DNA from: an uncultured bacterium
GTDB taxonomy: Bacteria; Myxococcota_A; Bradymonadia; UBA7976; VGTA01
Assembly: GCA_943788935.1 (NCBI GenBank)
Contig: CALSSE010000014.1
Location: forward strand, 22,682-86,681
Reading direction: 5' to 3'
Length of the DNA stretch: 64,000 bases
Part shown: positions 1,584 to 32,961 of the stretch, piece after piece
Position numbering within the stretch: position 1 is the first letter of the stretch
How the letters are laid out: every line of letters starts with the position of its first letter
Made by a program: the position numbers and the translations under genes
Notes under the pieces: model-generated
The model's input: the letters and a program-made list of their open reading frames with translations, nothing else
Database searches by the model: none
Told to the model about the DNA's origin: nothing

Positions 1584-4500
1584 TTGATGATATCTAGCCT
1601 ACTCCTCTTCTCGATGAACGCTGAGGCTCAATTGACTCAGCCTGATGGCTCGGTGATCCCTGCTCAAAACAACCTCGCTAATATCTTGAATAATGCCCCT
1701 CTCAATGAAGGGATTAACGTCATCAATGAAGCGAGCCTCGTGCCTGAGGTCTTCACCCCAAACAACTCGCTGACCTTTAGCTTTGTCGCGGAGGGAGGAG
1801 GCTATGAGAACGCCTTCGGATGGTATAACCTCGGCGATGATGTGACGCAGGCCCAAAATCGCTTCGTGATCTTCAATTGCGCCGTTGAGCCGACTAATCC
1901 TTATGAGACGAGGGTGATCAATTTTTGTGGAAACCCTGAGTGGAAGGGGGGGGCGATCGGCTTCTTCTTGATCACACCTCAGCGACGAGATGGAGGCGGA
2001 CGGCGATCTCCCAACTGCGCGCGCAATGATAATGTGGGATATATCTATTATTCCGAGCCGAGGCTCAACATTGATGAAGATCCTAATAATGCCTTTATCC
2101 ATCACCTCGTCTATCGCTCAAATACTTACCCGAACGCCTTTTACTTTGGTTTTGAAGACCTCTTCAGAGGAGGAGATAATGACTTTGAAGACACGCTGGT
2201 CCTCGTTGAGGGTCTCCTCGTCGGTGATGCTCCTGAGCTCTGTGATGGACTTGACGATGACTGTGATGGTCGAATAGACGAAGGCGCTGAGGTCAACTGT
2301 TCAAGCGTATGTGGTCAAGGTTTACGCCTCTGTGAAGAGGGAGCGCTCAGCGCATGTTCGGCCCCTGACCCTGTAGAAGAGCTCTGTGATGGCATCGATA
2401 ATGACTGTGATGGTCAGCTAGACGAAGGGGTCACCCAAGTCTGTAATAACGCTTGCGGGGAAGGCGTAGAGGTCTGTGTCGTAGGTCAATGGGCAGGCTG
2501 CACAGCGCCGACGCCCACTGAAGAGCGCTGTAATAACGTTGATGAAGATTGTGATGGCGTCGTCGATGAGGGGCTAGCGATCTCTTGCGTCAATGGGTGT
2601 GGTGTAGAAGGAGAGCGTCAGTGCGTTGCCGGTAGCTATGGGTTATGTGACGCACCTCCGCCCGTCATCGAGCTCTGCGATGGAGCAGATAATGACTGTG
2701 ATGGTCGTGTCGATGAGAACGTCATTCAAATCTGTAATAATGGATGTGGATCCGGCGTTGAACGTTGTGAGAGTGGCGTCTTTGTCGCCTGTGACGCGCC
2801 TACTCCTAGCCTTGAGGTCTGTGATGGGGCCGATAATGACTGCGACGGCTTAATCGATGAGGAGATCACTCGTGAATGCACCAGTCAATGTGGCGCAGTA
2901 GGCGTTGAGCAGTGCCTCGGCGGTTTATGGATCGGTTGTACGGCGATACAGCCTCGGCTAGAGGTGTGTAACCTAATTGATGATGACTGCGATGGTCGTG
3001 TGGATGAGTCACTCTCCCAAGAGTGTCAGAGCGCGTGTGGACAGGGAGAACAGCAGTGCTCAGAGGGAGCTTGGTCAGCTTGTGACGCTCCCTTACCACA
3101 ACGAGAGACCTGCGACGGGGAGGATCAGGACTGTGATGGGAGGATTGATGAGGGAGTGACCCAAAGCTGTCGCGCTGAGTGTGGGGTTGGGTTACAGCTC
3201 TGCATCAATGGTCTATTTTTGGACTGTAACATCCCTCCACCTCAAGAGGAGCTGTGTGATGACATCGATAATGATTGTGACGGCCTCATCGATGAGCGAC
3301 TAGAGAGATCTTGCGACGCTCTCTGCGGCTCTGGAAGCGAGCTCTGTATTGAGGGAGAATGGGTTGATTGTAGCGCGCCAACTCCACGCGCTGAGACCTG
3401 TAACGCGCTCGATGATGATTGTGATGGTCTCATTGATGAGGCGCTCATTCGGGTGTGTGATAACCCTTGCGGCGAAGGAATGTCTCGCTGTGAGCTCGGT
3501 CGTTGGTCTGATTGTCCTGCCTTATCGGCGACTGAAGAGCGCTGCGATGGTGAAGATAATGATTGTGATGGTTTGAGTGACGAGCGAGTAATCTGTGAAG
3601 AGGCGTCAGCGATCTGTATCAGAGGTCGATGTGCAGAGCCATGCGCTAGCGGTGAGTGCTCTGTGGGTCAAGAATGTATCGAAGACGTCTGCCTCGACTT
3701 ACCTTGCCAAAACTGCCGCACGTACGAAATCTGTGAGAATGACCGTTGTCTCGACCCCTGCTCAACAATAGACTGCGCAGAGGGTCAATATTGTGATCAA
3801 GGAGAGTGTCTAGAAGGAGAGTGTTATGAGGGGGGATGTACGGCGGGGAAAATATGTGTAGGGGGTCGCTGTCGGCCTAACGACTGCGACTTAGTGAGCT
3901 GTGGCTTGGAGGAAGGTTGCCTCGATGGTCGATGCTTCGTGAGCTGTGCTCAAGTCAACTGCGCTGATAGTCAGCGCTGCGTGAGAGGAGAGTGCATCGC
4001 CGATGCTTGTCAAGATATCTCCTGCGCAGAGGGTGAACTATGCACGGCCGGAGGCTGTGTCCCCGACGTCTGCAGTAATGTTCTCTGTCCACCACAGCGT
4101 CGATGTGAGATGGGCCGCTGCGTCGATGACCCTTGCACGAGAGTGAACTGTCCTGCCGAGTCTGAGTGTGTGCTGAGGCGTGAGGGGGTCACAGACTGTA
4201 TCCCTCTACTCTCCTCCACGATGGATGAGCCTTCAGTCGTCTATCCTGAGTCAGAAGCGGGTGAAGAGGGGTCTCCAATTAACGTCTTGGGAGGCGATCC
4301 GGTAACAGAAGAAGAAGAGGTCGCTGAGTCGATCGCTGGGGGCTGCCAGCAAACTGAGCGTAGGGGACGTCGGCTCCCTCTCTTCTTCATGTTACTCTTT
4401 TCGATGTTAATCTTCTCGAGGAAATTCCTCTCGAGGAGACACCTCTTCTTTAACGCCTCTATTAGACTTTTGATAAGCCTCTTGAGCCTCTCTCTAGTCT

Positions 4501-7232
4501 TTAGCGCCTGCGATGAGTCTTCTGAACCGGTAGAGACCACTAATGGGGGTATGAGCAGCGAGAATGGTCCGTTTTTAATCAATGGCTGCTCACCGAGAAT
4601 AGAGATCTGTAATGGCGAAGATGACGACTGCGATGGAGTGGTCGATAATGTCTCCAACCTAGATCGAGATGCTGATAATTGTGGCGTCTGTGGAGTCAAA
4701 TGTGACTATCCGGAAGGTGAAGGCTCTTGCGTCCAAGGAGTGTGTCGACTTGCGCGTTGCTTACCGGGCTTTGTGAACGCCGATGGCTCAAGCGCGAATG
4801 GTTGCGAAGAGGTCTGCGAGATTAATTCTGAGCTCGAAGATGGTACCGATGTTTGCAATATGCGCGATGATGACTGTGATGGAGTTGTCGATGAAGGATA
4901 CAATTTGGGTCAAGATGCAGATCATTGCGGAGCATGTGGAGTGAGCTGTTATGTCAGAGGAGTCACCGAGGCAAGCTGTCTCTCTGGGCGCTGTGTTATC
5001 TCAGCCTGTGAGACTGGCTTCTTGAACCTCGATGGGGATGCCTTAAATGGTTGTGAGTATCTCTGCGAAGGAGCCGGGGCCTCAGAGCAGTGTAATGGTA
5101 GCGATGATGACTGTGATGGTCGAGTTGATGAGGAGGTCCCGCTAGAGGTGAGCTGTCTCACCGAGGGACTCTGCGCCGGAGTTCGTCCAGAGTGTCGAGG
5201 AGATGATGGCGCTGTGTGTTTATATCCAGCAGAGGTGAAGCTCTCAGGGGAGATACGGTGTGATGGCCGAGATGAGGACTGTGATGGTCTAGTCGATGAG
5301 GATTTCTTAGGGCTAGGGGATCCCTGCGATAGCGATGATGATGACCTCTGCTTTAATGGTGTCAGCGCTTGCTCGAATGATCGCAGCGCGGTCATTTGCC
5401 AAGAGAGAGTGAATATCATTGAACGCTGTGATGGGGAGGATAATGACTGCGATGAACGGATCGATGAGGGCTTCTTTCTCCTCTTTGACGCGCTCAATTG
5501 CGGCGTTTGTGGCCAGCAATGCCCAACGGTAAACACCGTCAGCAGCTGTCGCGATGGTGCGTGTGTCGTCGATGACTGCATGGCGGGATATGTTGACCTT
5601 GACCAAGACCCGACTAACGGCTGCGAATATACCTGTGAGGTTGACTCAGCGGCAGGGTCTGAGGGGATGGGAGCTGAGGGAGTGGAGGTCACAGAGCGCT
5701 GTGATGGTGTCGATAATGACTGCGATGGGCGAGTAGATGAAGAGCTCAGCCCTCCTCAAGATGCCACTTGCCTCGAGTTGGGAATCTGCGCAGGGATCTC
5801 GCCGACATGTTTGGGCGCAGCGGGCTTTGTTTGTCTCTACCCTGGTAACTATGAGCTCGGAGAAGAGACTCGCTGCGACAGTCAAGACAATGACTGTGAT
5901 GGTCTCATTGATGAGTCTTTTCCTGAGCTAGGTGCGCTCTGTGATGGCGCGGATAATGACCTCTGTCTGGGCGGCGTATTGCGCTGCTCAGCTGACCCCA
6001 TCGCCGCGCTCATCTGTAGTGACTCCCCTGATGGGATAAGCGAGCGCTGTGATGAAGTAGACAATGACTGTGATGGGTTCATCGATGAGAATTATGATCT
6101 GAGCGGAGACCCACTTAACTGCGGACGCTGTGGGGTCACCTGTTCGCAAGAATCAGCAGAGACTCAATGTTTTGAAGGACTCTGCGAAATTACCGCCTGC
6201 GCAGAGGGCCTCTATGATGTCAACGGCGTGACGTTAGATGGTTGCGAATACAGCTGTGAACCAAGTTTAGAGGGCGTCGAGGTATGTAATGGGGTAGATG
6301 ATGATTGCGACGGTAATATTGACGAGGAGATCTCGCCTCCCGTCGACCTCTCCTGCGATGCCCCCGGAGTCTGTCGTGGCGTTAGTCCAAGTTGTAGAGG
6401 AGAGGTTGGGTTTGTCTGTGAGTTCCCCGAGGAGGTTTATCAGGGGGTAGAGACTCGCTGCGATCAGCTCGATAATGACTGTGATGGTCAAGTCGATGAG
6501 GCGAGTGCTCAGCCAGCGCTCGCTATCCTTGGTGAGCTCTGCGGAGGTGGGGTGGGCGCCTGTGCTCGTCAAGGGGTACAGGTCTGCTCTCAAGATGAAG
6601 AAGGTACACGCTGTAGCGCATCTGAAGGACAAGCGAGCGCTGAGCTTTGTAATGGGATTGATGATGACTGTGATGGGCGAGTCGATGAGGAGATCGAACG
6701 GGAGAGTGAAATGGTCTTGGTTAGCCAAGGAGGGCTCAACTACTGGATCGATCGTTGGGAGGCGAGCCGACCCGACGCGACCGAGAACTCGATCGGCTTA
6801 GATGTGAGTCGATCATGCAGCAAGCCACAAGTCAAACCTTGGGCTAATGTGACTTTGCTAGAGGCTGAAGAGGCTTGTAGCGCTCGCGGGAAACGCTTAT
6901 GTACTGACCGAGAGTGGACTACCGCCTGCGGAGAGATTTATCCTTATGGATCGTTTTATAATCCGACTGCCTGCGTGACCGAGGAGGCGGAGATGAGGGA
7001 AACAGGCTCCTCTGCTCTGTGTGAGAGTGCCATTGGAACCTTTGACATGTCGGGAAACCTTGCCGAGTGGGCGCTCTGTGAACAAGCGCAGGACTGCCAA
7101 ATCGTCCACCCGCAACTCGGCGGAAGCTACGCTGATCGAGTCGTTGATATATGGCGCTGTGACTTTCGTGGAAACGCCGTTCCTACGATCTCAACCGCGA
7201 CCGCTGGTTTCCGTTGTTGCGCTGATCCTTAA
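1584..7232 (+). CDS. Giant Cys-rich surface protein: DUF4114-like N-domain, many MopE-type (E-x-C-D-G-x-D-N-D-C-D-G) repeats, internal CTERM-like anchor plus lipobox, C-terminal FGE/SUMF1-fold domain
   Basis: 1882-aa ORF. GFEDLFRGGDNDFED (DUF4114-like); more than 20 ExCDGxDxDCDGxxDE motifs; DxxNCGxCG repeats; YWIDRWEAS...PWANVT...GKRLCT..EW...DMSGNLAEW...GFRCC (FGE-sulfatase fold). The true start may be ATG 1429 (see findings). Confidence 0.85.
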   Translation: MMISSLLLFSMNAEAQLTQPDGSVIPAQNNLANILNNAPLNEGINVINEASLVPEVFTPNNSLTFSFVAEGGGYENAFGWYNLGDDVTQAQNRFVIFNCAVEPTNPYETRVINFCGNPEWKGGAIGFFLITPQRRDGGGRRSPNCARNDNVGYIYYSEPRLNIDEDPNNAFIHHLVYRSNTYPNAFYFGFEDLFRGGDNDFEDTLVLVEGLLVGDAPELCDGLDDDCDGRIDEGAEVNCSSVCGQGLRLCEEGALSACSAPDPVEELCDGIDNDCDGQLDEGVTQVCNNACGEGVEVCVVGQWAGCTAPTPTEERCNNVDEDCDGVVDEGLAISCVNGCGVEGERQCVAGSYGLCDAPPPVIELCDGADNDCDGRVDENVIQICNNGCGSGVERCESGVFVACDAPTPSLEVCDGADNDCDGLIDEEITRECTSQCGAVGVEQCLGGLWIGCTAIQPRLEVCNLIDDDCDGRVDESLSQECQSACGQGEQQCSEGAWSACDAPLPQRETCDGEDQDCDGRIDEGVTQSCRAECGVGLQLCINGLFLDCNIPPPQEELCDDIDNDCDGLIDERLERSCDALCGSGSELCIEGEWVDCSAPTPRAETCNALDDDCDGLIDEALIRVCDNPCGEGMSRCELGRWSDCPALSATEERCDGEDNDCDGLSDERVICEEASAICIRGRCAEPCASGECSVGQECIEDVCLDLPCQNCRTYEICENDRCLDPCSTIDCAEGQYCDQGECLEGECYEGGCTAGKICVGGRCRPNDCDLVSCGLEEGCLDGRCFVSCAQVNCADSQRCVRGECIADACQDISCAEGELCTAGGCVPDVCSNVLCPPQRRCEMGRCVDDPCTRVNCPAESECVLRREGVTDCIPLLSSTMDEPSVVYPESEAGEEGSPINVLGGDPVTEEEEVAESIAGGCQQTERRGRRLPLFFMLLFSMLIFSRKFLSRRHLFFNASIRLLISLLSLSLVFSACDESSEPVETTNGGMSSENGPFLINGCSPRIEICNGEDDDCDGVVDNVSNLDRDADNCGVCGVKCDYPEGEGSCVQGVCRLARCLPGFVNADGSSANGCEEVCEINSELEDGTDVCNMRDDDCDGVVDEGYNLGQDADHCGACGVSCYVRGVTEASCLSGRCVISACETGFLNLDGDALNGCEYLCEGAGASEQCNGSDDDCDGRVDEEVPLEVSCLTEGLCAGVRPECRGDDGAVCLYPAEVKLSGEIRCDGRDEDCDGLVDEDFLGLGDPCDSDDDDLCFNGVSACSNDRSAVICQERVNIIERCDGEDNDCDERIDEGFFLLFDALNCGVCGQQCPTVNTVSSCRDGACVVDDCMAGYVDLDQDPTNGCEYTCEVDSAAGSEGMGAEGVEVTERCDGVDNDCDGRVDEELSPPQDATCLELGICAGISPTCLGAAGFVCLYPGNYELGEETRCDSQDNDCDGLIDESFPELGALCDGADNDLCLGGVLRCSADPIAALICSDSPDGISERCDEVDNDCDGFIDENYDLSGDPLNCGRCGVTCSQESAETQCFEGLCEITACAEGLYDVNGVTLDGCEYSCEPSLEGVEVCNGVDDDCDGNIDEEISPPVDLSCDAPGVCRGVSPSCRGEVGFVCEFPEEVYQGVETRCDQLDNDCDGQVDEASAQPALAILGELCGGGVGACARQGVQVCSQDEEGTRCSASEGQASAELCNGIDDDCDGRVDEEIERESEMVLVSQGGLNYWIDRWEASRPDATENSIGLDVSRSCSKPQVKPWANVTLLEAEEACSARGKRLCTDREWTTACGEIYPYGSFYNPTACVTEEAEMRETGSSALCESAIGTFDMSGNLAEWALCEQAQDCQIVHPQLGGSYADRVVDIWRCDFRGNAVPTISTATAGFRCCADP

Positions 7233-7300: not shown

Positions 7301-8365
7301 ATGACTCATAAATCGTTTTGGCGACCGACCTCGTCACTATTATACCTCTCACTCCTCGCGGTCTTATGTGGCTGTGAGTCTTCGGAAGAGGGAGAGATGA
7401 GCGCCGGAGAGATGAGCGCTGGAGAGATGAGCGCTGGAGAGATGAGCGCTGGAGAGATGAGCGCTGGAGAGATGAGCGCTGGAGAGATGAGCGCTGGAGA
7501 GATGAGCGCTGGAGAGATGAGCGCTGGAGAGATGAGCGCTGGAGAGATGAGCGCCGGAGAGATGAGCGCCGGAGAGATGAGCGCCGGAGAGATGAGCGCC
7601 GGAGAGATGAGCGCCGGAGAGATGAGCGCCGGAGAGATGAGCGCCGGAGAGATGAGCGCTGGAGAGATGAGCGCCGGCTCAGGACCGATGTGTACAGACG
7701 CTACCCAATGCCCTGTTCCCCCGCCGGTCGCGCTTGTTGAGTGTGAAGAAGAGTGGGTCGTCGATGTGGTCTTTACTCCCATCTGCGTCGAGGGGATGTG
7801 CGATATGGAGAGGAGTACCCGTCAGCAGCGAAACTGTGCTGAAGAGGGAAGGGTTTGTCGTGACGGAGAGTGCCTGACTCCCCCTATGTCTGCTGTATGT
7901 GATCAAGAAACCCCCTGCTCTGAGAATGAGCTGTGTGTCTATAATGAGGGTCTCTGTGGCGCGATAGGCTTCAGCGATGGTCAAGGCAGATGTCAAATGA
8001 TCCCTAATCTCTGCGACGCTGTGGTGTCACCAGTTTGTGGCTGTAATGGAGAGCGCTATTCCAACGACTGTGTCGCTCGCTCAGCGGCAGTTGATGTCAG
8101 CCGCTTTGGTGGCTGTGCGGATGAAGAGGAGAGCGGTCGTTATGTCTGTGGTCAACAGACCTGTGATACACAGACATATTGCGCTATTTTCATGAACGAC
8201 ATCGCTGGCTCAGACCAGCCTGAGTATAGCACTGATTGCGCCCCTCTACCTGAGCAATGTGCTGAGTCTAACGTTCAGAGCTGCACAGCCTGCTTTATGC
8301 CGGATCTGTTCCTCACTTGCAGCGAAGTCGGTGAGCAGCTCATCGTCGTCTATCCAGGAGGCTAA
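7301..8365 (+). CDS. Cys-rich lipoprotein with (AGEMS)n linker and Kazal-like domain
   Basis: Lipobox LAVLCGC, 19 GEMSA repeats, and PVCGCNGERYSNDCVA (Kazal-like motif). Confidence 0.8.
   Translation: MTHKSFWRPTSSLLYLSLLAVLCGCESSEEGEMSAGEMSAGEMSAGEMSAGEMSAGEMSAGEMSAGEMSAGEMSAGEMSAGEMSAGEMSAGEMSAGEMSAGEMSAGEMSAGEMSAGEMSAGEMSAGSGPMCTDATQCPVPPPVALVECEEEWVVDVVFTPICVEGMCDMERSTRQQRNCAEEGRVCRDGECLTPPMSAVCDQETPCSENELCVYNEGLCGAIGFSDGQGRCQMIPNLCDAVVSPVCGCNGERYSNDCVARSAAVDVSRFGGCADEEESGRYVCGQQTCDTQTYCAIFMNDIAGSDQPEYSTDCAPLPEQCAESNVQSCTACFMPDLFLTCSEVGEQLIVVYPGG
7391..7675 (+). repeat. Coding VNTR, 19 x 15 bp (GGAGAGATGAGCGCY)
   Basis: Perfect units that differ only at the last base (C/T). Confidence 0.97.
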
Positions 8366-15765: not shown

Positions 15766-17016
15766 ATGTCACCGATCTTTACTCATGCTACTAAGAAGAT
15801 GAACCACCTCTCAAGACTTACCCGCCCAATGAGCTTATTAAGCGTAGCTCTCCTTAGCTCAAGCGCGTTGATTGGATGTGGTGACATAGAGGTCTCCGGT
15901 CCACCCAATCATCTCGTGAACGATAACCACGATAACGGTATGATAGAACTCTTTAACAATGCCCCCATCGTGGGCAAATATGTCACCGGCTCTTCAGTTG
16001 TCTTCTCCTTGCAGAGGACAAATGATGGGGAGAGCGAGAGCCTCGATGAGCTCACGATTGAATCGAGCGACCCTGCTCTGCTCCGAGTCTCGGAAGGAGT
16101 AGAAAGCTGTATTGACAATAGATCTTGTTACGATATTGAGGCTGATCTAGAGTTCAATATTCGCTCTAAGCGCTTCGACGTTCTCGGCTCAGGAGATGTC
16201 ACTTTGACCTTTAAAGATGGTGATGAGGTGGTCTTGAGTCGTGAAGTTCAACTCGTCGATGCGAGCTCGCTCACCCTCTCTCGATCGGTCCCTCCAGCCC
16301 TCCAAGATGAGGTCAGCACCATAGCGGGTGAGGGAGAGAAGGTCGTCGTAGGCTCTGAGTTCTCTCTCCGCCTCAGAGCGATGTCACAAGTTGAGGGCGA
16401 AGAGCAGGAGATTGACATCTCTTCACTCACCGAACTTCCTAGCGGTGAAAACTTTAATCTTGAGCAAAGTGACCCCGTGAGTATGGGGACTCGTTTCCAT
16501 ATCACTCCTGAGTCAGAGGGAGCTCTCTCGATCCCTGTGAACGTCGGCGATCAATCAATCGAGATGAACTTTAATGTCGTCTCTAGCTCTGAGATCGTGG
16601 GTATAAATGTCGCTCATGAGACTTGGATAAACGAAATGCCTGAGGAAGAGAATAATCTTCCTAAGGGCAGAGCACTCGCCGTAGCGAAAGATGAAGAGGG
16701 CGCTCCAATCTTCGGTGCTGATATCATTTGGGAGCGACTCGATGGAGAAGAAGATGACGCAATGGTTGTCGATAGTTTCACCGGAAGTGAGCTGAACTTC
16801 ATCTATGAAGAGGGCGCTCAAGTCGCTTTCAAGGTCACTGTCGGCGAGGTGAGCGAAATCGTCTATCTCCCAGTGAATATCGAGCAGTTGAACGACATCT
16901 TCGGAGACAACGCCTTCGCTGACGGATGCGACGCTAAAGGAGATGTTTCAGGCAGCGCTCTCCTCACCCTCCTCCTCATGGGAATGATCGTGATGAGGCG
17001 TAGAGCGATCGCTTAA
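15766..17016 (+). CDS. Lipoprotein with Ig-like beta domains and C-terminal MYXO-CTERM-like anchor
   Basis: Lipobox ALIGC; C-terminus DGCDAKGDVSGSALLTLLLMGMIVMRRRAIA (Cys, TM, Arg cluster). Confidence 0.8.
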   Translation: MSPIFTHATKKMNHLSRLTRPMSLLSVALLSSSALIGCGDIEVSGPPNHLVNDNHDNGMIELFNNAPIVGKYVTGSSVVFSLQRTNDGESESLDELTIESSDPALLRVSEGVESCIDNRSCYDIEADLEFNIRSKRFDVLGSGDVTLTFKDGDEVVLSREVQLVDASSLTLSRSVPPALQDEVSTIAGEGEKVVVGSEFSLRLRAMSQVEGEEQEIDISSLTELPSGENFNLEQSDPVSMGTRFHITPESEGALSIPVNVGDQSIEMNFNVVSSSEIVGINVAHETWINEMPEEENNLPKGRALAVAKDEEGAPIFGADIIWERLDGEEDDAMVVDSFTGSELNFIYEEGAQVAFKVTVGEVSEIVYLPVNIEQLNDIFGDNAFADGCDAKGDVSGSALLTLLLMGMIVMRRRAIA

Positions 17017-21112: not shown

Positions 21113-21643
21113 ACAATAGAATTCCTTAACCTAAAAGTAGTACATATATAAACGTGCCATCACTAGTACACTTTACAAATCATGTCAAATAGAATCGCGA
21201 GGTTCTTGTGCTTAAAAAAACAACCTGCTGTAGTCCATTAAAGACTTTAAAGTGACCCCCTAGGCATCTAGCATATTTACCAAGAATCTTGATATACAGG
21301 ACAGTATATCTTTATAAACATGTGTCATATTGATACTTGTAGAATATACGATAACAATATGCCGCAATATGCCGCCTAAATGCCTTTTTATCATAAATGC
21401 ACATAAAAAACGACTCATTCTCAAAGAGTCTTCCAAATTTAATAGAAAATACCCAGCTGAGATGTATAATTCTCCTCAATTATATACATATATATCCTCA
21501 GTAAACAGTGCACAAATTATGAAATAATACACCTAAGCAATCTGCCTAAATAATCTAAGCATTAAACTTTACTTTCAAACCTCTTGATGTTAGAAGTTAA
21601 AAGGTCATTCTCAAGGTAGTGACTTTGAAAGTTGGGTAATACA

Positions 21644-24600
21644 ATGAAGAATATAATACATAAGAGTTTTCTAGCCTTAGCACTTATTACATTTGGTGCG
21701 TGTCAAGAGAAAATAAATCTCAACACAAGTGAACCATCAGTGAATGACGACCAAGATGGTGATGGGTACTCTAGCGTCGTGGACTGTGATGACAACGATC
21801 CCACAGAGAGACCCGGTGTTATTTGGTATACCGACACTGACGGAGACGGCTTCGGAGATGAAGGAGCCTCACAGGAATGTGAACGTAACGATAACAGTGA
21901 CGTCTTGGTCGCTGGTGACTGTGACGACACTGACGAGACTCTAAATCCTAATGTGACGTGGTATGCTGACGTCGATGGTGATGGGTTCGGTGACCCTCTT
22001 CAAGAAGCAAACTGTAAACCAACCGTTTCTCCATCAGTGTTAGACGGGACAGACTGTGATGATAATGATTCCACAGAATATCCAGGTGTCACATGGTACA
22101 TAGACGCTGATGAAGATGGGTTTGGTAATCCTAACTCCAGTAACGAGTGTGAACGTTCATATAGTACAGATGTACTCGTAGGCAATGATTGTGATGATCT
22201 CTCATCAGAGGTTGGTGACGATGCAGTTTGGTATGCTGACGTCGATGGTGACGGTTTCGGTGACCCTAGCTCGAGCACCGCTTGTACTCGCAATGCTCCT
22301 TCTGATGTTTTAGATAACACTGACTGTAACGATAATGAAGCAGGTCAATACCCTGGTATCACTTGGTATGCTGATTCAGATGGTGATGGATTTGGTGATC
22401 CTGACGTCAGCAATGATTGCGAGCCTAATGCGGCCTCCGATATCTTAGATAACACTGACTGTAACGATAATGAAGCAGGTCAATACCCTGGTATCACTTG
22501 GTATGCTGATTCAGATGGTGATGGATTCGGCAACCTAAGTTCCCCCAGTTTCTGTGAACCCAATGAGCCCTCTGATGTCCTGGATAATACTGACTGTAAT
22601 GATAACGCATCGGATCAATACCCAGGTGTCATTTGGTATGTTGACTTTGACAGAGATGGCTTTGGTGATCCGAGTACCGGCTCTGAGTGTCAACCTCTGT
22701 ACTTATCAGACGTAACGAATAACACCGACTGCAACGATACTGACGCTGAACTGAATCCGTTGATCACCTGGTATGCTGACTCCGATGGAGATGGGTTCGG
22801 TGACCCTAACGTCAGTAATATATGCGAGCCGAATAACCCTACAGATATTCTGGATAACACAGATTGTGATGATACTAACGCCGCTTACTACCCTGGCTTA
22901 GTTTGGTACGTCGACGCTGATGGAGATGGTTTTGGTGATGATGCTCGATCATCGCTCTGCAACCCCCAAAATCCAACGGATACTCTGATAAGCGGAGATT
23001 ATGCTGATGATAACATTAATCGTTTTCCCGGAGCTACCTTCGATATAACAGGCACCGCCTCAGGCATATACAAAGGTGCTCCTCCAGTCCTCGTCATTTT
23101 GGATTCAAGTGACTCATATGAGGTGAGTGGAAGTGGTCCCTTTACTATCCCTGATGCAGTTGTTGACCTTGAGAGCTATCAAATCTCTATCGATAGTTCA
23201 GCGAGTGGTCTGAATTGTAGTCTCGAAGGAGCTGACGGCGTTCAAGAAATTCAAGGGTTTGACTTAAATATAACGATCTCATGTGAGTGTGTTTATGACC
23301 ATACAATCATCAACCTCGGCTTTGCTCTTGTTGACGATTCTTGGGAAGACGAGAACCAATTCTTTGACATCAATGATCTCGGAATGATCCTCTACCGCAG
23401 TGAAGAAGAGAGTGATCAAGGGAGTCTTAAGTGGAGGTGTGGAAATCGAGCCTTCACCGTAGATAGCATTGGATCCTTAGTTGGCATTGAAATACCGGAT
23501 GATACCACTGGAGAGCTTGTTTCGGCTGATGCACAGATTGAAGGATTTGGAGCTCGACGAGCGATTAACAACGACGGAGATATCGCTTATGTTGCTGAGA
23601 TCATGCCTGCGGATGATGCCAGTTTCAGCCTTAGAAATGAGCCTGGAGTAATCTACACGGGATATCCGAGTAACTTCAGAAAAGAAGTGATCAGGCGAGG
23701 TGAACAGATGGGACCCATAGAGGAGATCTATGGTGGTTCTGGGACTGAGGTAAGTATTAACTCAAACGGTCAAATCGCTTTCCGAGCTCATACTCAAGAT
23801 GATGACGACATCGAATATATCGGCATTTATGAATCTGATACTGAAACAATCAACTATTTCATTGACTTCCCTACGACAGATGCTGATGAAATGTGGTTAT
23901 CCGATATCAATGAGCGAGGTGAAGTACTCGCATTAGCAGAAGATTACATTGAAGATGGGTCTAAGAAGCTCTATCGATTCGGGAACCCAGTCGGATCAGA
24001 GCTCCTCGTACAGGAGTTCGACCCGATCCTCGACTTCTTCACGACTAGGATCAGTAATCCTCGCTTCAACGATCAAGGGGAGATCGTGATGGTTCTTGGC
24101 CATTGCCCAACTCTCATCGAAGCAGAGGCTCTTGCTGATACCAGAGACGAGAGTTGCTTGATAGAGGAGACTACTTTAGAAGTATCTAACCAGTGGGGCG
24201 ATAGCACGAGGCTGGTGAAGGTCTACCATGAATCCTTGATGTTTTGGAAAGACGGGGCCTTTCAAGAGATTGCCCGCGCAGGTTCCACTATTGATGGTAT
24301 CAGGATTGAAGGTTTTACGCCTTTCATCGACATCAACAATGTAGGTGAGGTCGCCTTCATCGTAGGTGAGTATGGAGTGTCCCGAGTGGTAGAGGGAGCT
24401 AGTAACACTAGCGGTGATGAGATCAGTCATCTATTTAGATGGTCATCTGATCAAGGTCTAGAGTTGGTGAGCCGTAACCTGGATATTATTGGTGACTACT
24501 CACTGGTAGAGCACCAATTCGTTGACATCACGGATGACGGCTCGATTTTCTTCAAGGGTAGTAATGCTGCGGATGACGACCAACATGCTATTTTCTGTAA

Positions 24601-25894
24601 TCATCCAGATACTGGGACACATATGCTGATCGGAGAGGGTCTGTTTTTCGATAATCAGCATGTAGAGACCATCACCATGGGAGAGCTTAACTTTGATCAC
24701 AACACGAGTGAAATAGGACGAGTTGCGGTCCCCGTTAAGTTCTCCAACCGTCCGACTCAAAACCTAGCATTACTCGAATGTGAATCCCAACCGATCACTT
24801 CAGAGAGAGTGATTGAAGATATCTGTGATGATGAGATTGATAACGATGGCAACGGTGTAGCTGATTGTGATGACTCTGCTTGCTCTTCTGAGAGAACCTG
24901 TGGCAGAGACCTACCCGTCGATGACGAGCAAATCACGATTGAAGGTTCTCTCTTGTACCTTGCAGATCCGATCTGGTGGCGACCCAATGCTGATTGTACA
25001 CCTCACGCAGATAACGATGAATCTGATCCTAATTCAGGACTCTATCTATATGACGCTTATTGGTTCACGAACACCACCGACCAAGAAGTCACGGTGACCG
25101 CCAACGCAACCTTCTCAGATGACGGCTACCTACATGTATTTAACTACCTGTCAGCGACCGATGAGGTAGAATGTGTCCGAGGAAATGATGACTATCTTAG
25201 CCGATTCCAAAGCACAGTGACTGGGATCACTGTAGCGCCAGGCGCTGAGATCGTGATTTATGTCTCGGTGAGTGAGCCGGGAGAGGTCTCAGAATATACG
25301 CTTGAGGTGACCCCTTCAAACGAAGAGATCTGTGACGACGACATAGATAATGATTTGAATGGCGCCTTTGACTGTGCTGATCAAATCGCTTGTGAAGCAC
25401 CTGAAGGGTGTAACGAGCTCTGTGATGATGGTCTTGATAATAATGGAGATACACGTATTGACTGCGATGACCCCAGATGTGCTTTTGATAGTGCCTGTGA
25501 AATCGTGGCTCCTCTTGACGAAAATATCATTAATATTACAGGACAGATCAATCAAGATGATTTCGTGTGGAGTCGCCCTAACAACGCCTGTGTCATTGAA
25601 AATATCAATGCACAATACTTCTATGATGCGATCACTTTGACTAATACCGATGCCATCTCTCATGAATACACGGTAAGCGTTGAATGGTCACCACCGAGTC
25701 TTGGTGGATTTACTGATGGATATATTCATATTTACGATAGTTTATTTACGACCTGTCTTCTTGGTAATGATAATGAATCAGACGAGAGTAACAGCGCGAT
25801 CACATTTACAGTCGATGCCAATACCTCAGTCGTCGTAGTCTTGAGCTCTTATGACCAAAGCGCTGTTATCGACTACTCTGTTACGATTCAATAG
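21644..25894 (+). CDS. Large modular lipoprotein: ~9 WY-x-D-x-DGDGFG (MopE-type) repeats, NxxGxxAF beta-propeller-like repeats, EICDD/DNDG repeats, two PPC-like beta domains
   Basis: Lipobox TFGAC; 45-aa repeats; INNDGDIAY, INSNGQIAF, INNVGEVAF; two WxRPN...YxYD...DGYxH...GND domains. Confidence 0.85.
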   Translation: MKNIIHKSFLALALITFGACQEKINLNTSEPSVNDDQDGDGYSSVVDCDDNDPTERPGVIWYTDTDGDGFGDEGASQECERNDNSDVLVAGDCDDTDETLNPNVTWYADVDGDGFGDPLQEANCKPTVSPSVLDGTDCDDNDSTEYPGVTWYIDADEDGFGNPNSSNECERSYSTDVLVGNDCDDLSSEVGDDAVWYADVDGDGFGDPSSSTACTRNAPSDVLDNTDCNDNEAGQYPGITWYADSDGDGFGDPDVSNDCEPNAASDILDNTDCNDNEAGQYPGITWYADSDGDGFGNLSSPSFCEPNEPSDVLDNTDCNDNASDQYPGVIWYVDFDRDGFGDPSTGSECQPLYLSDVTNNTDCNDTDAELNPLITWYADSDGDGFGDPNVSNICEPNNPTDILDNTDCDDTNAAYYPGLVWYVDADGDGFGDDARSSLCNPQNPTDTLISGDYADDNINRFPGATFDITGTASGIYKGAPPVLVILDSSDSYEVSGSGPFTIPDAVVDLESYQISIDSSASGLNCSLEGADGVQEIQGFDLNITISCECVYDHTIINLGFALVDDSWEDENQFFDINDLGMILYRSEEESDQGSLKWRCGNRAFTVDSIGSLVGIEIPDDTTGELVSADAQIEGFGARRAINNDGDIAYVAEIMPADDASFSLRNEPGVIYTGYPSNFRKEVIRRGEQMGPIEEIYGGSGTEVSINSNGQIAFRAHTQDDDDIEYIGIYESDTETINYFIDFPTTDADEMWLSDINERGEVLALAEDYIEDGSKKLYRFGNPVGSELLVQEFDPILDFFTTRISNPRFNDQGEIVMVLGHCPTLIEAEALADTRDESCLIEETTLEVSNQWGDSTRLVKVYHESLMFWKDGAFQEIARAGSTIDGIRIEGFTPFIDINNVGEVAFIVGEYGVSRVVEGASNTSGDEISHLFRWSSDQGLELVSRNLDIIGDYSLVEHQFVDITDDGSIFFKGSNAADDDQHAIFCNHPDTGTHMLIGEGLFFDNQHVETITMGELNFDHNTSEIGRVAVPVKFSNRPTQNLALLECESQPITSERVIEDICDDEIDNDGNGVADCDDSACSSERTCGRDLPVDDEQITIEGSLLYLADPIWWRPNADCTPHADNDESDPNSGLYLYDAYWFTNTTDQEVTVTANATFSDDGYLHVFNYLSATDEVECVRGNDDYLSRFQSTVTGITVAPGAEIVIYVSVSEPGEVSEYTLEVTPSNEEICDDDIDNDLNGAFDCADQIACEAPEGCNELCDDGLDNNGDTRIDCDDPRCAFDSACEIVAPLDENIINITGQINQDDFVWSRPNNACVIENINAQYFYDAITLTNTDAISHEYTVSVEWSPPSLGGFTDGYIHIYDSLFTTCLLGNDNESDESNSAITFTVDANTSVVVVLSSYDQSAVIDYSVTIQ
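22310..22527 (+). repeat. Recent 135-bp-period duplication inside the MopE-type repeat array
   Basis: About 83 bp (TTAGATAACACTGACTG...GATGGATT) are identical at 22310 and 22445. Confidence 0.85.
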
Positions 25895-26798: not shown

Positions 26799-26965
26799 GA
26801 CCTCTTCGACTACACTTAAGGTAATAAAGCGATATCTTCGAGACTAGGTCTCTAAAGATTAGGTCCATCATGAACCATATCAGATTAACTTTTACAGCTC
26901 TACTCCTACAGATTCGAATCATCAATTCGACAGTTTCAACACTCTATTTATTCTAGGAGTCATTG

Positions 26966-29359
26966 ATGAAAATATATATTATTTTAATCTTTACGCTGTT
27001 GGTTGAGATATCTAATGCCTCTGCAGAATGTGGCCAGGATATAATTGACTCAACCTATGAAGCCGATACTTCAGATTCAGTGGTTCGCCTAACAGAGATA
27101 AGTCTTGATAATCAAGACGATAGTTTCTCTCAAGCTCAGGGGATTGATTATGTCGTTGAGCTCAAGCTGTTAGGAGGAGAAACTTACACCTTTGAAACTC
27201 TTGAGAGTGAAGATTTCGATCCAGTATTAACTCTCTTGGTACACGATCAATGTGAAAACCTTATAGAACACGAGAGTAATGATGACTCAACCGGTAATAT
27301 ACCGAATGATAACTATGAGTCATTTATTGAGTACACCACGCCTCTCAGAACAGATGGTCAATACCTGTTATTAATCTCTGGACTCAATGAGATGACGGGA
27401 ACCACTAACCTAGAGATCAAACGCTTTGAGGCTGAGTTACCTGAGATGAATGGCGTTATTCTCACTGGAGATAGTATCACCGGTTGTCACTCTATGGCCG
27501 GATCTTACTCTTCGCATAGCCTTTTTCATCTTATTAGTGTTTTACTCCTTCTGTTATTGATCGCTCGCCGATTTACGATAATGAAATATGTGCGCACTCG
27601 TATCGCTCATTTTTTACTCTATTTTGTGCTACTCGGTAGCGCTCTTTCTCTGCTTGCTCCTGCCTCTGCCTCAGCTGAATTAAATGGCTTTTCAGTCATG
27701 AACTTTCGGCTCGCTTTAGGAACAAATCGTATTATCTCTCTTGAGACAGCAGGTGTTCCCGATCATTTGAATGTATATGGGGGAACATCTTATCATTATG
27801 CTAGCCAGCTTCTACAAGAGAAGACGATATCCTCTAGCCAAACTCAGGAGAGAAGTTTACTAAGTTCACAAACTTTTCAACAGTTTGGAGTGGGAATTGG
27901 GCTCTTTGATCTGGTTGCTCTAGAGTTCAATATCCCTGTTATATACACAAACCAAGGTGATGAGACTCTTTTTCCAGCATTAGGGACAACCCCTCGCGGT
28001 GATTCTCTCGCGCGGCTTCGCTTCTTAATCGCTGGTTCAAATACAGGAGCTTGGGGCCTAAGTGGAAGTTTAGCGACCACTTTACCCACGGGAGATAGCG
28101 CAGGACTGACAGGAGATGAGGGGGTTCAAACCTTACCTACTCTGACCGGAACTCATCGACATAATGACTTTATCACGAGCGTTTCTCTTGGCGCCTTAAT
28201 CAGAACAGAGACCGATGATAATGTGCGTGGCTTATCACTTGGTCAAGAGATGACTTATGGAATAGGGACCAGCTACCAATGGACGGATAGTATACTCTCT
28301 GGCGTTGAATTTGTAGGACGTAGCGACTTATCTGACTTTACTTATCAAAACCCCTTAGAGGTCATTTTAGGATCCCGTATAGGGCTCTGGGAACAGCTCT
28401 TCTTTGAGGTTGGCGGAGGAGCCGGGCTTATCTCTGGATATGGGACTCCTCTCTGGAGAACCTTCGCTGCTCTACAATGGCATCCTGAGAGCACTGATGT
28501 TAAAGACCAAGATCAAGACGGTATTCTCGATCAAGTGGATCAATGTCCTCTGCAACCTGAAGATCGAGATGAGTTTGAAGATGAGGATGGATGTCCTGAC
28601 CCTGATAACGATCAAGATCAAATTCTCGATCAAGCAGATCAGTGTCCGCTTAAAGCAGAAGATAAGGATGGGTTTGAAGATGATAATGGATGTCCTGACC
28701 TCGATAACGATCAAGATCAAATTCTCGATCAAGCTGATCAATGTCCACTCAAAGCAGAGGATATAGATGAATTTGAAGATGGGGACGGATGTCCTGATCT
28801 TGATAACGACCAAGATCAAATCCTCGATCCAGCAGATCAATGTCCGCTCAAGGCAGAAGATAAAGATGGTTTTGAAGATACAGACGGGTGCCCTGATCTC
28901 GATAATGATCAAGATGGAGTGCCTGACAGTAACGATAAATGTCCACTTAAAGCTGAAGATGGCATAGGGGATACACCAAAAGATGGGTGTCCATCAGCGT
29001 GTCGTATCTCCATCCCTGGGCAAGTGCTCTTTGCTAACAACTCAGCTGAGCTCAAAAAATCAAGTTATATTGAGGCTCAAAAGATCGTTGATTACTTGAA
29101 GACCTTGAAGAACTTCAAAGAGATCATTGTTGAGGGGCATACAGACAACGTAGGCTTCGCATATGCTAATCTTCGGCTCTCTCGCAAACGAGCCAAAAGG
29201 TTTGCGGCTGTACTGCGTCAAAAGATAAAGAACTCAACAATAAGTATTAAAGCTGTTGGCTTTGGGTTCAACAAGCCCATCGCTAGCAATGATACCCCAG
29301 AGGGGAGAGCCAAGAATCGTCGCGTCTCGTTCCGTATCATCGGAGGCGTGTGTAAATAA
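26966..29359 (+). CDS. PPC-like domain, internal CTERM-like anchor, second signal peptide, then beta-barrel/TSP3/OmpA (TraB-like) outer-membrane protein
   Basis: Signal ending ASA; FDPVLTLL...SNDD (PPC-like); GC...LLLLLLIARR; MKYVRTR...ASASA; barrel with GYGTPLWR; DxDxDxIxDxxDxCP TSP3 repeats; VEGHTDN...LSRKRA...GFGFNKPIASNDTPEGRAKNRRV. AGGAG RBS. Confidence 0.88.
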   Translation: MKIYIILIFTLLVEISNASAECGQDIIDSTYEADTSDSVVRLTEISLDNQDDSFSQAQGIDYVVELKLLGGETYTFETLESEDFDPVLTLLVHDQCENLIEHESNDDSTGNIPNDNYESFIEYTTPLRTDGQYLLLISGLNEMTGTTNLEIKRFEAELPEMNGVILTGDSITGCHSMAGSYSSHSLFHLISVLLLLLLIARRFTIMKYVRTRIAHFLLYFVLLGSALSLLAPASASAELNGFSVMNFRLALGTNRIISLETAGVPDHLNVYGGTSYHYASQLLQEKTISSSQTQERSLLSSQTFQQFGVGIGLFDLVALEFNIPVIYTNQGDETLFPALGTTPRGDSLARLRFLIAGSNTGAWGLSGSLATTLPTGDSAGLTGDEGVQTLPTLTGTHRHNDFITSVSLGALIRTETDDNVRGLSLGQEMTYGIGTSYQWTDSILSGVEFVGRSDLSDFTYQNPLEVILGSRIGLWEQLFFEVGGGAGLISGYGTPLWRTFAALQWHPESTDVKDQDQDGILDQVDQCPLQPEDRDEFEDEDGCPDPDNDQDQILDQADQCPLKAEDKDGFEDDNGCPDLDNDQDQILDQADQCPLKAEDIDEFEDGDGCPDLDNDQDQILDPADQCPLKAEDKDGFEDTDGCPDLDNDQDGVPDSNDKCPLKAEDGIGDTPKDGCPSACRISIPGQVLFANNSAELKKSSYIEAQKIVDYLKTLKNFKEIIVEGHTDNVGFAYANLRLSRKRAKRFAAVLRQKIKNSTISIKAVGFGFNKPIASNDTPEGRAKNRRVSFRIIGGVCK

Positions 29360-31735: not shown

Positions 31736-32857
31736 TCACTCCGCCTCTGCGACGAAATTAAAGTCAAATTGGCAAGGGAAGCTAATCGAGTACAATAACT
31801 CGATCGTCACACATAGATCGCCTTCACAGTTAATATTCGCTGTATACGTTCCTGATAGATTTAATGCATCATCAAAACGACCACTGATATCGATCACTGT
31901 TGGAAGAATAAGTCCATAGTCATTATCTACATTACCAGAGAGAGCATTACAGGTGATATCCCGTTCATTCAAAGCACAATTTGCCGCTTCAGGCAGTCCA
32001 TCAATAGACCAGTTCAGACTCATCATGATGACATCGGATAAAACAAATCCCTTATCTTCAGAAAGAGCGCTGGCGATATCGTCTTTCACACCTTCACAAC
32101 TAGCGACACCGGCCACAAAGCTACGATAAGACCAACTCCCTGCTTGGGCTATAAAATCTGACTCTTCTTGGCAGATCATTTCGCTACATATCGCTTCACT
32201 CTTGAGTCCACTATTTGGACATTCACAGGTGTTACACTCATCTCCTGCATCAAAAGTATCACCGGGTAAGCAATCATTATCACCCGGTATAATACATGTT
32301 CCATCTCTACAGATCTGTCCTGTCGCAGTACAATCTTGACCGATCGTTTCGTTGTTAGAGAGACACTCACCTGTCTCAGGGTCACACATAGCGACTTGTG
32401 CAGGTATAACTGCATTGCCATCACAGGATGAGGGAGAGCTTTCGCCACATTCAACATTAGCACAAAGATCAGAGTCACAACTAAGTGCTCCATCTACGAT
32501 GCATTGTCCGTCAAGACTACAAACCTTTAGCTCAGCTGATTCTTGACACTCAGTATCAGTAGCATTGCAGATCTGACAGGGGTCTCCACAGCTCTTATCT
32601 TGACAAGGATTATAAATGTCACATGTCATTTGAGTGCATATCAATCCATTAACTAACCCACTCTCTGGACAAGTACAGGTGTTGCAGTTATCGCCGGCGT
32701 CAGAGGTACTCCCTGGGTCACACATTATTGGTGTAACGGCAGTCCCAATCACCTCTTTCGAATCGCTATCTTGGCATCCAATCGTTACAAAAATGAGAAG
32801 TAAAGAGAGACATCGTCTTATCCAAAGGGTGGTCATGATATCGAAAGATATATACAT
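31736..32857 (-). CDS. Cys-rich lipoprotein with two pacifastin-like (DAGDxCNTCxC) modules
   Basis: Lipobox VTIGC; DAGDNCNTCTC and DAGDECNTCEC. GAGGA RBS precedes ATG 32857. Confidence 0.75.
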   Translation of the reverse strand: MYISFDIMTTLWIRRCLSLLLIFVTIGCQDSDSKEVIGTAVTPIMCDPGSTSDAGDNCNTCTCPESGLVNGLICTQMTCDIYNPCQDKSCGDPCQICNATDTECQESAELKVCSLDGQCIVDGALSCDSDLCANVECGESSPSSCDGNAVIPAQVAMCDPETGECLSNNETIGQDCTATGQICRDGTCIIPGDNDCLPGDTFDAGDECNTCECPNSGLKSEAICSEMICQEESDFIAQAGSWSYRSFVAGVASCEGVKDDIASALSEDKGFVLSDVIMMSLNWSIDGLPEAANCALNERDITCNALSGNVDNDYGLILPTVIDISGRFDDALNLSGTYTANINCEGDLCVTIELLYSISFPCQFDFNFVAEAE

Positions 32858-32961
32858 ATTTATCCTCAATGTTTGATGAAATACCAAGAGGGAAAGTATA
32901 GGCAACATCACCTCGAAGGTAAACAACTGAGTGAGCTCTGAGGCTCTATGTATAGAGGCTC

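Follow-up and report, generated by a model that had tools for sequence, protein, structure and literature searches.

Closest described systems and the locus under study

MXAN_5598 of Myxococcus xanthus carries an N-terminal surface module, an internal MYXO-CTERM, an outer-membrane β-barrel, and an OmpA domain in one protein (Guo, Haft and Wall, mBio 2025, PMC11980579). The passage of that paper devoted to it proposes that it is a fusion of two genes, likens it to TraA plus TraB, and proposes processing of its N-terminal part. The traA and traB genes themselves are separate and overlap by 4 bases (PMC3325183), and their products form 1:1 complexes, each reaching the outer membrane independently (PMC12045341). 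Here we describe a gene of comparable layout from an uncultured bacterium of the Bradymonadia (Myxococcota_A; UBA7976; VGTA01), found in a 64,000-nucleotide (nt) stretch of contig CALSSE010000014.1 (assembly GCA_943788935.1, positions 22,682 to 86,681), henceforth the window. The 797-amino-acid (aa) product of this window gene is probably a single Sec precursor; we predict that signal peptidase I and a myxosortase split it, yielding a cargo held by a lipid anchor and a barrel protein that binds the wall.

As far as that passage describes MXAN_5598, the window gene resembles it in combining a surface module, an internal tag, a barrel, and an OmpA domain in a single open frame. It differs in three respects: its cargo is not a large adhesin but a single PPC-like domain of 150 aa, the family scans run identified nothing ftsA/ftsZ-like in its flanking open reading frames (ORFs), and the second signal peptide is retained in full, Met included. 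The passage is silent on a second signal peptide and on release of the barrel. The comparison is by description and not by sequence; the text of Table S1 of the same paper holds no match for MXAN_5598. With traA and traB, as these are set out in the papers cited, the window gene shares a tagged surface protein upstream of a signal peptide, a homologous barrel, thrombospondin type 3 (TSP3) repeats, and OmpA. Unlike that pair, it is one ORF and not two, its N-terminal part has neither a PA14 variable domain nor a Cys-rich stalk, and its C-terminal part scores 149 bits on the TraB model NF033763, below the curated cutoff of 700. A possible further parallel is the cytochrome b-c1 precursor FbcH of Bradyrhizobium, in which two proteins are parted at an internal signal sequence; its products differ in being respiratory inner-membrane subunits with no sorting tag. 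A literature search on FbcH found nothing. Published cases of bacterial precursors split into envelope proteins with separate destinations are few, and a literature search for them, with most subscription journals outside its coverage, found one unrelated review.

A single intact reading frame

The gene occupies one stop-free frame (26963/26966 to 29359) on the forward strand and is read as 797 aa from the ATG at 26966 (Table 1). At the junction of its two parts, positions 27569 to 27583 read CGA TTT ACG ATA ATG, and the +1 frame there runs through ...ADLR into two successive stops, TAA (27579 to 27581) and TGA (27582 to 27584). The original prediction, made from the letters of the window, had noted an out-of-frame stop overlapping a start at 27579 to 27583 and had offered two accounts of it, either a true fusion or two genes joined by a 1-nt indel at 27572 to 27574, where TT would stand in place of TTT. 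The overlap is as it described, and between the two accounts the population data at this locus decide for the true fusion. We compared contigs from eight (X1 to X8) of the 20 sequencing runs containing the stretch over positions 26800 to 28600 and saw no insertion or deletion in any of them. The site is bridged with at least 31 nt on each side in six of the eight runs, from four studies, and all six have TTT: X1 (the possible source), X3 and X7 (RNA libraries of study P1), X4 (P2), X5 (P3), and X8 (P4). The X2 contig stops 23 nt beyond the site, and X6 has no coverage there. The two RNA-library contigs likewise span the junction with no indel; they are not taken as evidence of transcription. 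This evidence consists of contigs at a depth of 3.5 to 5.4, not of raw reads, and a rare TT allele would be invisible in it.

Run X8 represents a distinct strain, which differs from the window at 17 of 542 nt (about 97% identity) by substitution and is still in frame. One of these substitutions is ATA>ATG at 27580, by which the out-of-frame TAA becomes TGA and a tandem ATG ATG results. Proteins of 797 aa are present in three assemblies, with Val, Met, or Ile at residue 221; base 27626 is A (Met221) in all seven covering runs, whereas the window has G (Val) and another assembly encodes Ile. Assembly error as the cause of the fused frame is thus effectively excluded.

Table 1. Features of the window gene (positions in the window) and of related loci elsewhere in the same genome (G000, with contig and positions)
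Feature	Position	Strand	Basis
ORF, predicted precursor (797 aa, 87.4 kDa)	26966..29359	+	Translation; no indel; three assemblies 797 aa
Shine-Dalgarno sequence AGGAG, 6 nt before ATG 26966	26955..26959	+	Sequence; anti-Shine-Dalgarno pairing -6.8 kcal/mol
Signal peptide 1, predicted Sec/signal peptidase I type, ASA/E	26966..27025	+	Hydropathy, A-x-A motif
Cargo: one acidic PPC-like domain and short linker	27026..27481	+	Atlas features, iterative search, NF038127
Internal MYXO-CTERM-like tag: Gly173-Cys174, Ser-rich spacer, transmembrane helix, Arg201-Arg202	27482..27571	+	Sequence, terminal-tag pattern, linker profile
Junction CGA TTT ACG ATA ATG A, out-of-frame stops TAA TGA overlapping Met206	27569..27584	+	Sequence
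Second complete signal peptide: Met206, basic n-region, h-region, ASA/E238; no Shine-Dalgarno sequence before Met206	27581..27676	+	Anti-Shine-Dalgarno pairing +0.3 kcal/mol, hydropathy, A-x-A
TraB-family outer-membrane barrel, predicted 12 strands, FapF/COG4313-like fold	27677..28495	+	NF033763, model, Foldseek
TSP3 acidic repeats	28496..29005	+	PF02412 above cutoff
OmpA-like peptidoglycan-binding domain	29006..29356	+	PF00691, E = 1e-16
Cargo-plus-barrel pair, split by 10 nt	G000:C16:31175-37373	-	
Cargo-plus-barrel paralog, fused	G000:C26:5309-13363	-	
L097, 597-aa MXAN_2561-like/MXAN_2562 fusion	G000:C28:28980-30770	+	

Architecture of the predicted precursor

The codons of Gly173 and Cys174 start at 27482, and the internal tag and second signal peptide together extend from Gly173 to Ala237. 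A hydrophobic helix (15-residue hydropathy averages starting at about residues 183 to 192 peak at 1.9 to 2.95) is followed by Arg201-Arg202, FTI, Met206 with KYVRTR, a second hydrophobic stretch (averages starting at residues 213 to 221), and the motif ASASA/E at 27676/27677. The internal tag shares its pattern with 19 terminal tags of the same genome. The resemblance goes beyond chance: a profile of such linkers, built from 40 other proteins with the window protein left out, ranked the junction sixth among 22,147 ORFs from all six frames of the genome, with a nearly full-length match (14.3 bits, E = 0.045). Sequence, hydropathy, and profile agree with the original prediction of a CTERM anchor and a second signal peptide inside one OmpA-type ORF, though the NCBI MYXO-CTERM models, which do not match the tag, speak against that label.

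The cargo domain displays the pattern FDP...C...NDD...GxY, a repeated type shared by numerous secreted proteins that the genome encodes. A likeness to PPC domains is suggested by atlas features, with scores of 0.91 to 0.92 against clusters labeled PF04151 (PPC) and 140 to 149 shared features, by an iterative search of the genome with the cargo (first-pass E values of 0.016 and 0.046), and by a match of NF038127 to the N-terminal part (E = 0.0045). A Pfam search gave the cargo no match at E ≤ 0.1, and its structure model, made from the single sequence, has a predicted local distance difference test (pLDDT) score of 30. Residues 1 to 205 contain three Cys only and have no match to TraA, PA14, or the TIGR04201 Cys repeat among the Pfam and NCBI models.

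Comparison of the C-terminal part with TraB by hidden Markov model revealed a TraB-family relationship along its length: a signal peptide is followed by barrel, TSP3, and OmpA in the TraB order, and the barrel alone matches NF033763 over model positions 20 to 297 (E = 6.8e-9). The structure model of the barrel (pLDDT 88.6) has 12 strands, and the best fold matches in a Foldseek search were FapF and the COG4313 channel (5o68, 5o65, and 4rl8; TM scores of 0.58 to 0.67 over the listed chains and E values down to 7e-9), among them 5o68 with E = 7e-9 and TM 0.64 and 4rl8 with TM 0.67. These channels differ from the window barrel in that identity is 10 to 13% and in that the latter continues into TSP3 and OmpA; transport is not implied by the fold match. 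The PDB, searched with the barrel sequence profile, yielded no relative, and a literature search pairing TraB with FapF found nothing.

Fused precursors as a class

A barrel profile derived from 28 sequences matches 11,021 clusters at E ≤ 0.001, of which the best 150 were examined for their N termini. Among these 150, 41 have at least 100 aa ahead of the barrel, and all 41 (the window protein and 40 others) possess in that region a Cys, a helix, a basic loop, and a second hydrophobic stretch. The Cys lacks a preceding Gly in nine of them, and an A-x-A motif is present in 38 of the 41 fused linkers, compared with 90 of 105 stand-alone signal peptides. A Met occurs in the loop of five of the 41, so the barrel cannot be started separately in most members. 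The tag-plus-signal layout joining cargo to barrel is common in this group, and the window gene is a new, minimal member of an already described architecture; its cargo is smaller than that of any other fused protein seen here that looks complete.

Fused and split homologs coexist. We surveyed 56 barrel loci of the genome and its relatives, a score-biased sample with mostly 1.5-kb flanks, and scored 14 as fused, 6 as split (a tagged gene directly upstream), 34 as alone (no such neighbor by pattern), and 2 as unscorable, being too close to an edge. Within the genome of the window, the barrels on contigs C9 and C26 are fused. The fused protein on C26 has a split paralog on C16, with N-terminal parts 45% identical and barrels that are sisters (Shimodaira-Hasegawa-like approximate likelihood ratio test [SH-aLRT] support of 100), and both states are retained in the congeneric genome G001. 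The same tag-plus-signal hairpin is also coupled to other partners: it joins a MXAN_2561-like tagged protein (82 bits, below cutoff) to a MXAN_2562 barrel (169 bits, above cutoff) and stands ahead of lipoprotein signals in two ORFs.

Several individual ORFs with internal tags deserve mention in their own right. A 1882-aa ORF of the window itself (1584 to 7232, +) has an internal Cys tag, and the second signal after it is of the lipoprotein type (...FSA/C), so that here the same joint has a lipoprotein partner; open frames of 1856 to 1896 aa are present in G001, G006, and G022, with the junction itself seen in G001 only. A 2393-aa ORF (G000:C2:60426-67604, -) has a lipobox after the tag, and a 1270-aa ORF (G000:C29:549-4358, -) contains a divergent TraB-family barrel. 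In L038, a 2957-aa fusion (G000:C9:111500-120370, -), the hairpin joins TraA-like Cys repeats to a TraB-family barrel; its N-terminal part scores 345 bits on NF033759 (below the cutoff of 750) and matches TIGR04201 25 times, and it is nearer to a literal TraA-TraB fusion than is the window gene. Another fused protein, P0119, remains below the cutoff of AgmC_N (182 bits versus 275).

Proposed processing and its alternatives

On the reading that we favor, signal peptide 1 would start Sec export of the PPC-like cargo, the tag helix would stop transfer, with the loop RRFTIMKYVRTR (five basic residues) remaining cytoplasmic, and the second signal peptide would restart export. By the established Sec topology rules, two helices would then form a hairpin across the inner membrane, and both folded parts would lie on the periplasmic side. 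Cleavage by signal peptidase I after Ala237 would release a 61.1-kDa barrel/TSP3/OmpA protein with the N terminus ELNGFS, which would insert in the outer membrane and bind peptidoglycan. Under the model set out in PMC11980579, Cys174 would receive a lipid and myxosortase would cleave next to it; the products would be a 17.1-kDa cargo, destined for type II export, and a 7.0-kDa remnant. Cargo and barrel would thereby be made 1:1 from one precursor. The genome encodes the myxosortase MrtP (NF040674; 342 bits, cutoff 250) and, above cutoff, the type II secretin GspD; taken with its MYXO-CTERM matches, these would place it among the Myxococcota. By analogy with the 1:1 complexes of TraA and TraB, the two products probably work together as a surface module and its wall anchor, though not in kin recognition. 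Of the minimal cargo-plus-barrel adhesion or recognition module originally envisaged, the cargo-plus-barrel precursor survives as the best reading, and kin recognition is not supported.

Several points weigh against this reading or limit the evidence for it. In the parts of the literature covered here, cleavage, lipidation, and localization are demonstrated for no such precursor. Both signal peptides are calls from hydropathy and motif. The NCBI MYXO-CTERM models TIGR03901 and TIGR03382 give no match to the tag at E ≤ 1, although such models match all seven other internal tags tested, weakly or better. About 11% of the first-Met starts of the genome have a Shine-Dalgarno sequence as weak as that of Met206. 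In favor of the reading, the ratios of synonymous to nonsynonymous substitutions between X8 and the window (3:1 in the cargo, 9:1 in the barrel, and 3:4 in the hairpin) place both cargo and barrel under purifying selection between fused alleles, which argues that the barrel is still in use, but few substitutions are involved, and all derive from a single strain at low depth. Also in its favor, changes between the fused and unfused states number at least 25 on a tree of 180 rows and 14 on a cleaned tree of 71 rows; these are quick trees with SH-aLRT support only and with labels from gene calls, the window barrel is a long branch in them, and two of the ten doubtful "unfused" rows removed in cleaning proved to be truncated fusions. 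Finally, the sole true ortholog, P0152 (45%), is truncated at its N terminus short of the junction and does not date the fusion.

An unlikely alternative is that ribosomes also start at Met206, giving two overlapping products, of which the barrel is an ordinary protein and the long one serves the cargo only. The complete signal peptide after Met206, the tandem ATG ATG of strain X8, and the frequency of equally weak pairing at first-Met starts are all compatible with this. Nevertheless, Met206 is not preceded by a Shine-Dalgarno sequence, the 30 nt ahead of its ATG are predicted to be paired, the lack of an in-frame stop means that there is no translational coupling, and the loop is free of Met in 36 of the 41 fused linkers. 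Because of the missing Shine-Dalgarno sequence and these Met-free loops, posttranslational splitting is the simplest route to the barrel.

We regard it as comparably unlikely that signal peptidase alone cuts the precursor, the degenerate tag being no myxosortase substrate and the cargo remaining tethered to the inner membrane, facing the periplasm, through an uncleaved hairpin. Such an outcome would accord with the failure of both MYXO-CTERM models to match the tag, with the replacement of Gly173 by Ser in X8, and with a cargo that is a single 17-kDa domain devoid of a stalk for surface display. Against it, every allele seen retains Cys174, and all 41 fused linkers possess a Cys, including the nine with no Gly before it. 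Moreover, a genome-wide search with TIGR03901 produced eight matches at E ≤ 10, two of them above cutoff, and since pattern recognizes 19 terminal tags, this model is insensitive in the lineage.

The original prediction had seen in the ORF a TraA/TraB-like pair; that it is a true TraA/TraB system for recognition and outer-membrane exchange we consider very improbable. Gene order and the architecture of the C-terminal part are as in traA-traB, with their 4-base overlap (PMC3325183), and the barrel is homologous to that of TraB. In its strict form the idea fails nevertheless on the score of the C-terminal part and on a PPC-like N-terminal part devoid of TraA, PA14, and Cys-repeat matches; in addition, neither TraA nor TraB is found above cutoff anywhere in the 91%-complete genome, and the barrel belongs to a family rich in paralogs, with 11,021 clusters. 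Still less credit attaches to recoding, whereby some ribosomes or transcripts would slip by +1 near CGA TTT ACG, the cargo would end at the overlapping stop, and translation would restart at Met206: the two tandem stops of the slipped frame and the persistence of a stop in X8 despite substitution (TAA to TGA) fit it, but a single transition easily preserves a stop by chance, no homopolymer of more than 5 nt lies between tag and junction, and the two RNA-library contigs have no indel. That two ordinary genes were joined in assembly through one spurious T is hardly credible, for although deleting one T would leave a canonical TAATG overlap, comparable to the TGATG of the split pair L079, and the evidence is of contigs rather than raw reads, all six bridging runs of four studies, including the diverged strain, have TTT, and three assemblies agree on the protein.

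Origin of the fusion

The stop/start overlap at the junction is likely a trace of a former overlapping operon. The original prediction had advanced the TAATG for this purpose; as stand-alone proof we rejected it, because it is too frequent by chance, but it is still plausible that an indel in an ancestor fused the genes of an overlapping operon. Among the 17,107 internal Met codons of the genome, 3.6% lie in TAATG, 15% in TAATG or TGATG, and 46% in any overlap including ATGA, while Met-Lys with TAATG or TGATG accounts for 0.65%. In four of the six split pairs, a stop/start overlap directly follows the Arg cluster; given such overlaps, which resemble that of traA/traB, one frameshift yields the layout of the window gene. 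With a length of 64, the window linker ranks second among the 38 measured (median 53), and by inspection its loop is the only one of the five Met-bearing loops in which the Met is followed by a full basic n-region. In both trees the window barrel groups with five unfused barrels, apart from the other fusions of the genome; in the 71-row tree, the only one to include P0152, these and P0152 form a clade of seven rows (support 95). On balance, we lean toward the window copy being a young and independent fusion of an overlapping two-gene operon by frameshift.

Searches for orthologs returned little. With residues 1 to 500 as the query, nothing but the window protein itself was recovered; the barrel as query led to one ortholog, the N-terminally truncated P0152, and the cargo alone had no match among proteins of 112 to 359 aa. 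Two metagenome scans yielded no match, and no ortholog was present in G001 (91% complete), G002 (88% complete), or the other 30 genomes of the order. Eleven short Flavobacterium matches from a genome scan, restricted to query residues 86 to 129, were treated as chance and discarded.

Other genes in the window

The window also encodes a 416-aa predicted lipoprotein (15766 to 17016, +) that bears a terminal Cys tag as well (...GCD...RRRAIA) and would be anchored at both ends. Upstream of the fused gene lies a 1420-aa lipoprotein of acidic repeats that matches NxxGxxAF and DUF7453 (21632 to 25894, +) and downstream of it a Cys-rich protein with Pacifastin-inhibitor repeats (31736 to 32926, -). 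A further predicted lipoprotein (7301 to 8365, +) consists in part of about 20 tandem SAGEM pentapeptide repeats.

Implications

Tentatively, these observations can be drawn together in a model, for which we would claim somewhat less than even confidence, in which a tag followed by a signal peptide constitutes a self-resolving joint: one frameshift would fuse an overlapping operon of a tagged and a secreted protein, and two correctly sorted proteins would still result. The window gene would then have been caught before its old start, n-region, and stop had eroded. At this locus the population data remove the objection of assembly error, and the same genome holds both a fused/split pair of paralogs and a myxosortase. 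As the shortest complete fusion seen, the window gene is in addition a practical test substrate. For annotation, the warning is that many of the "giant OmpA proteins" of the phylum are probably two mature proteins. If the model is true, Myxococcota would routinely use cleaved secretory polyproteins in which the downstream partner is a TraB-type barrel, a MXAN_2562-type barrel, or a lipoprotein.

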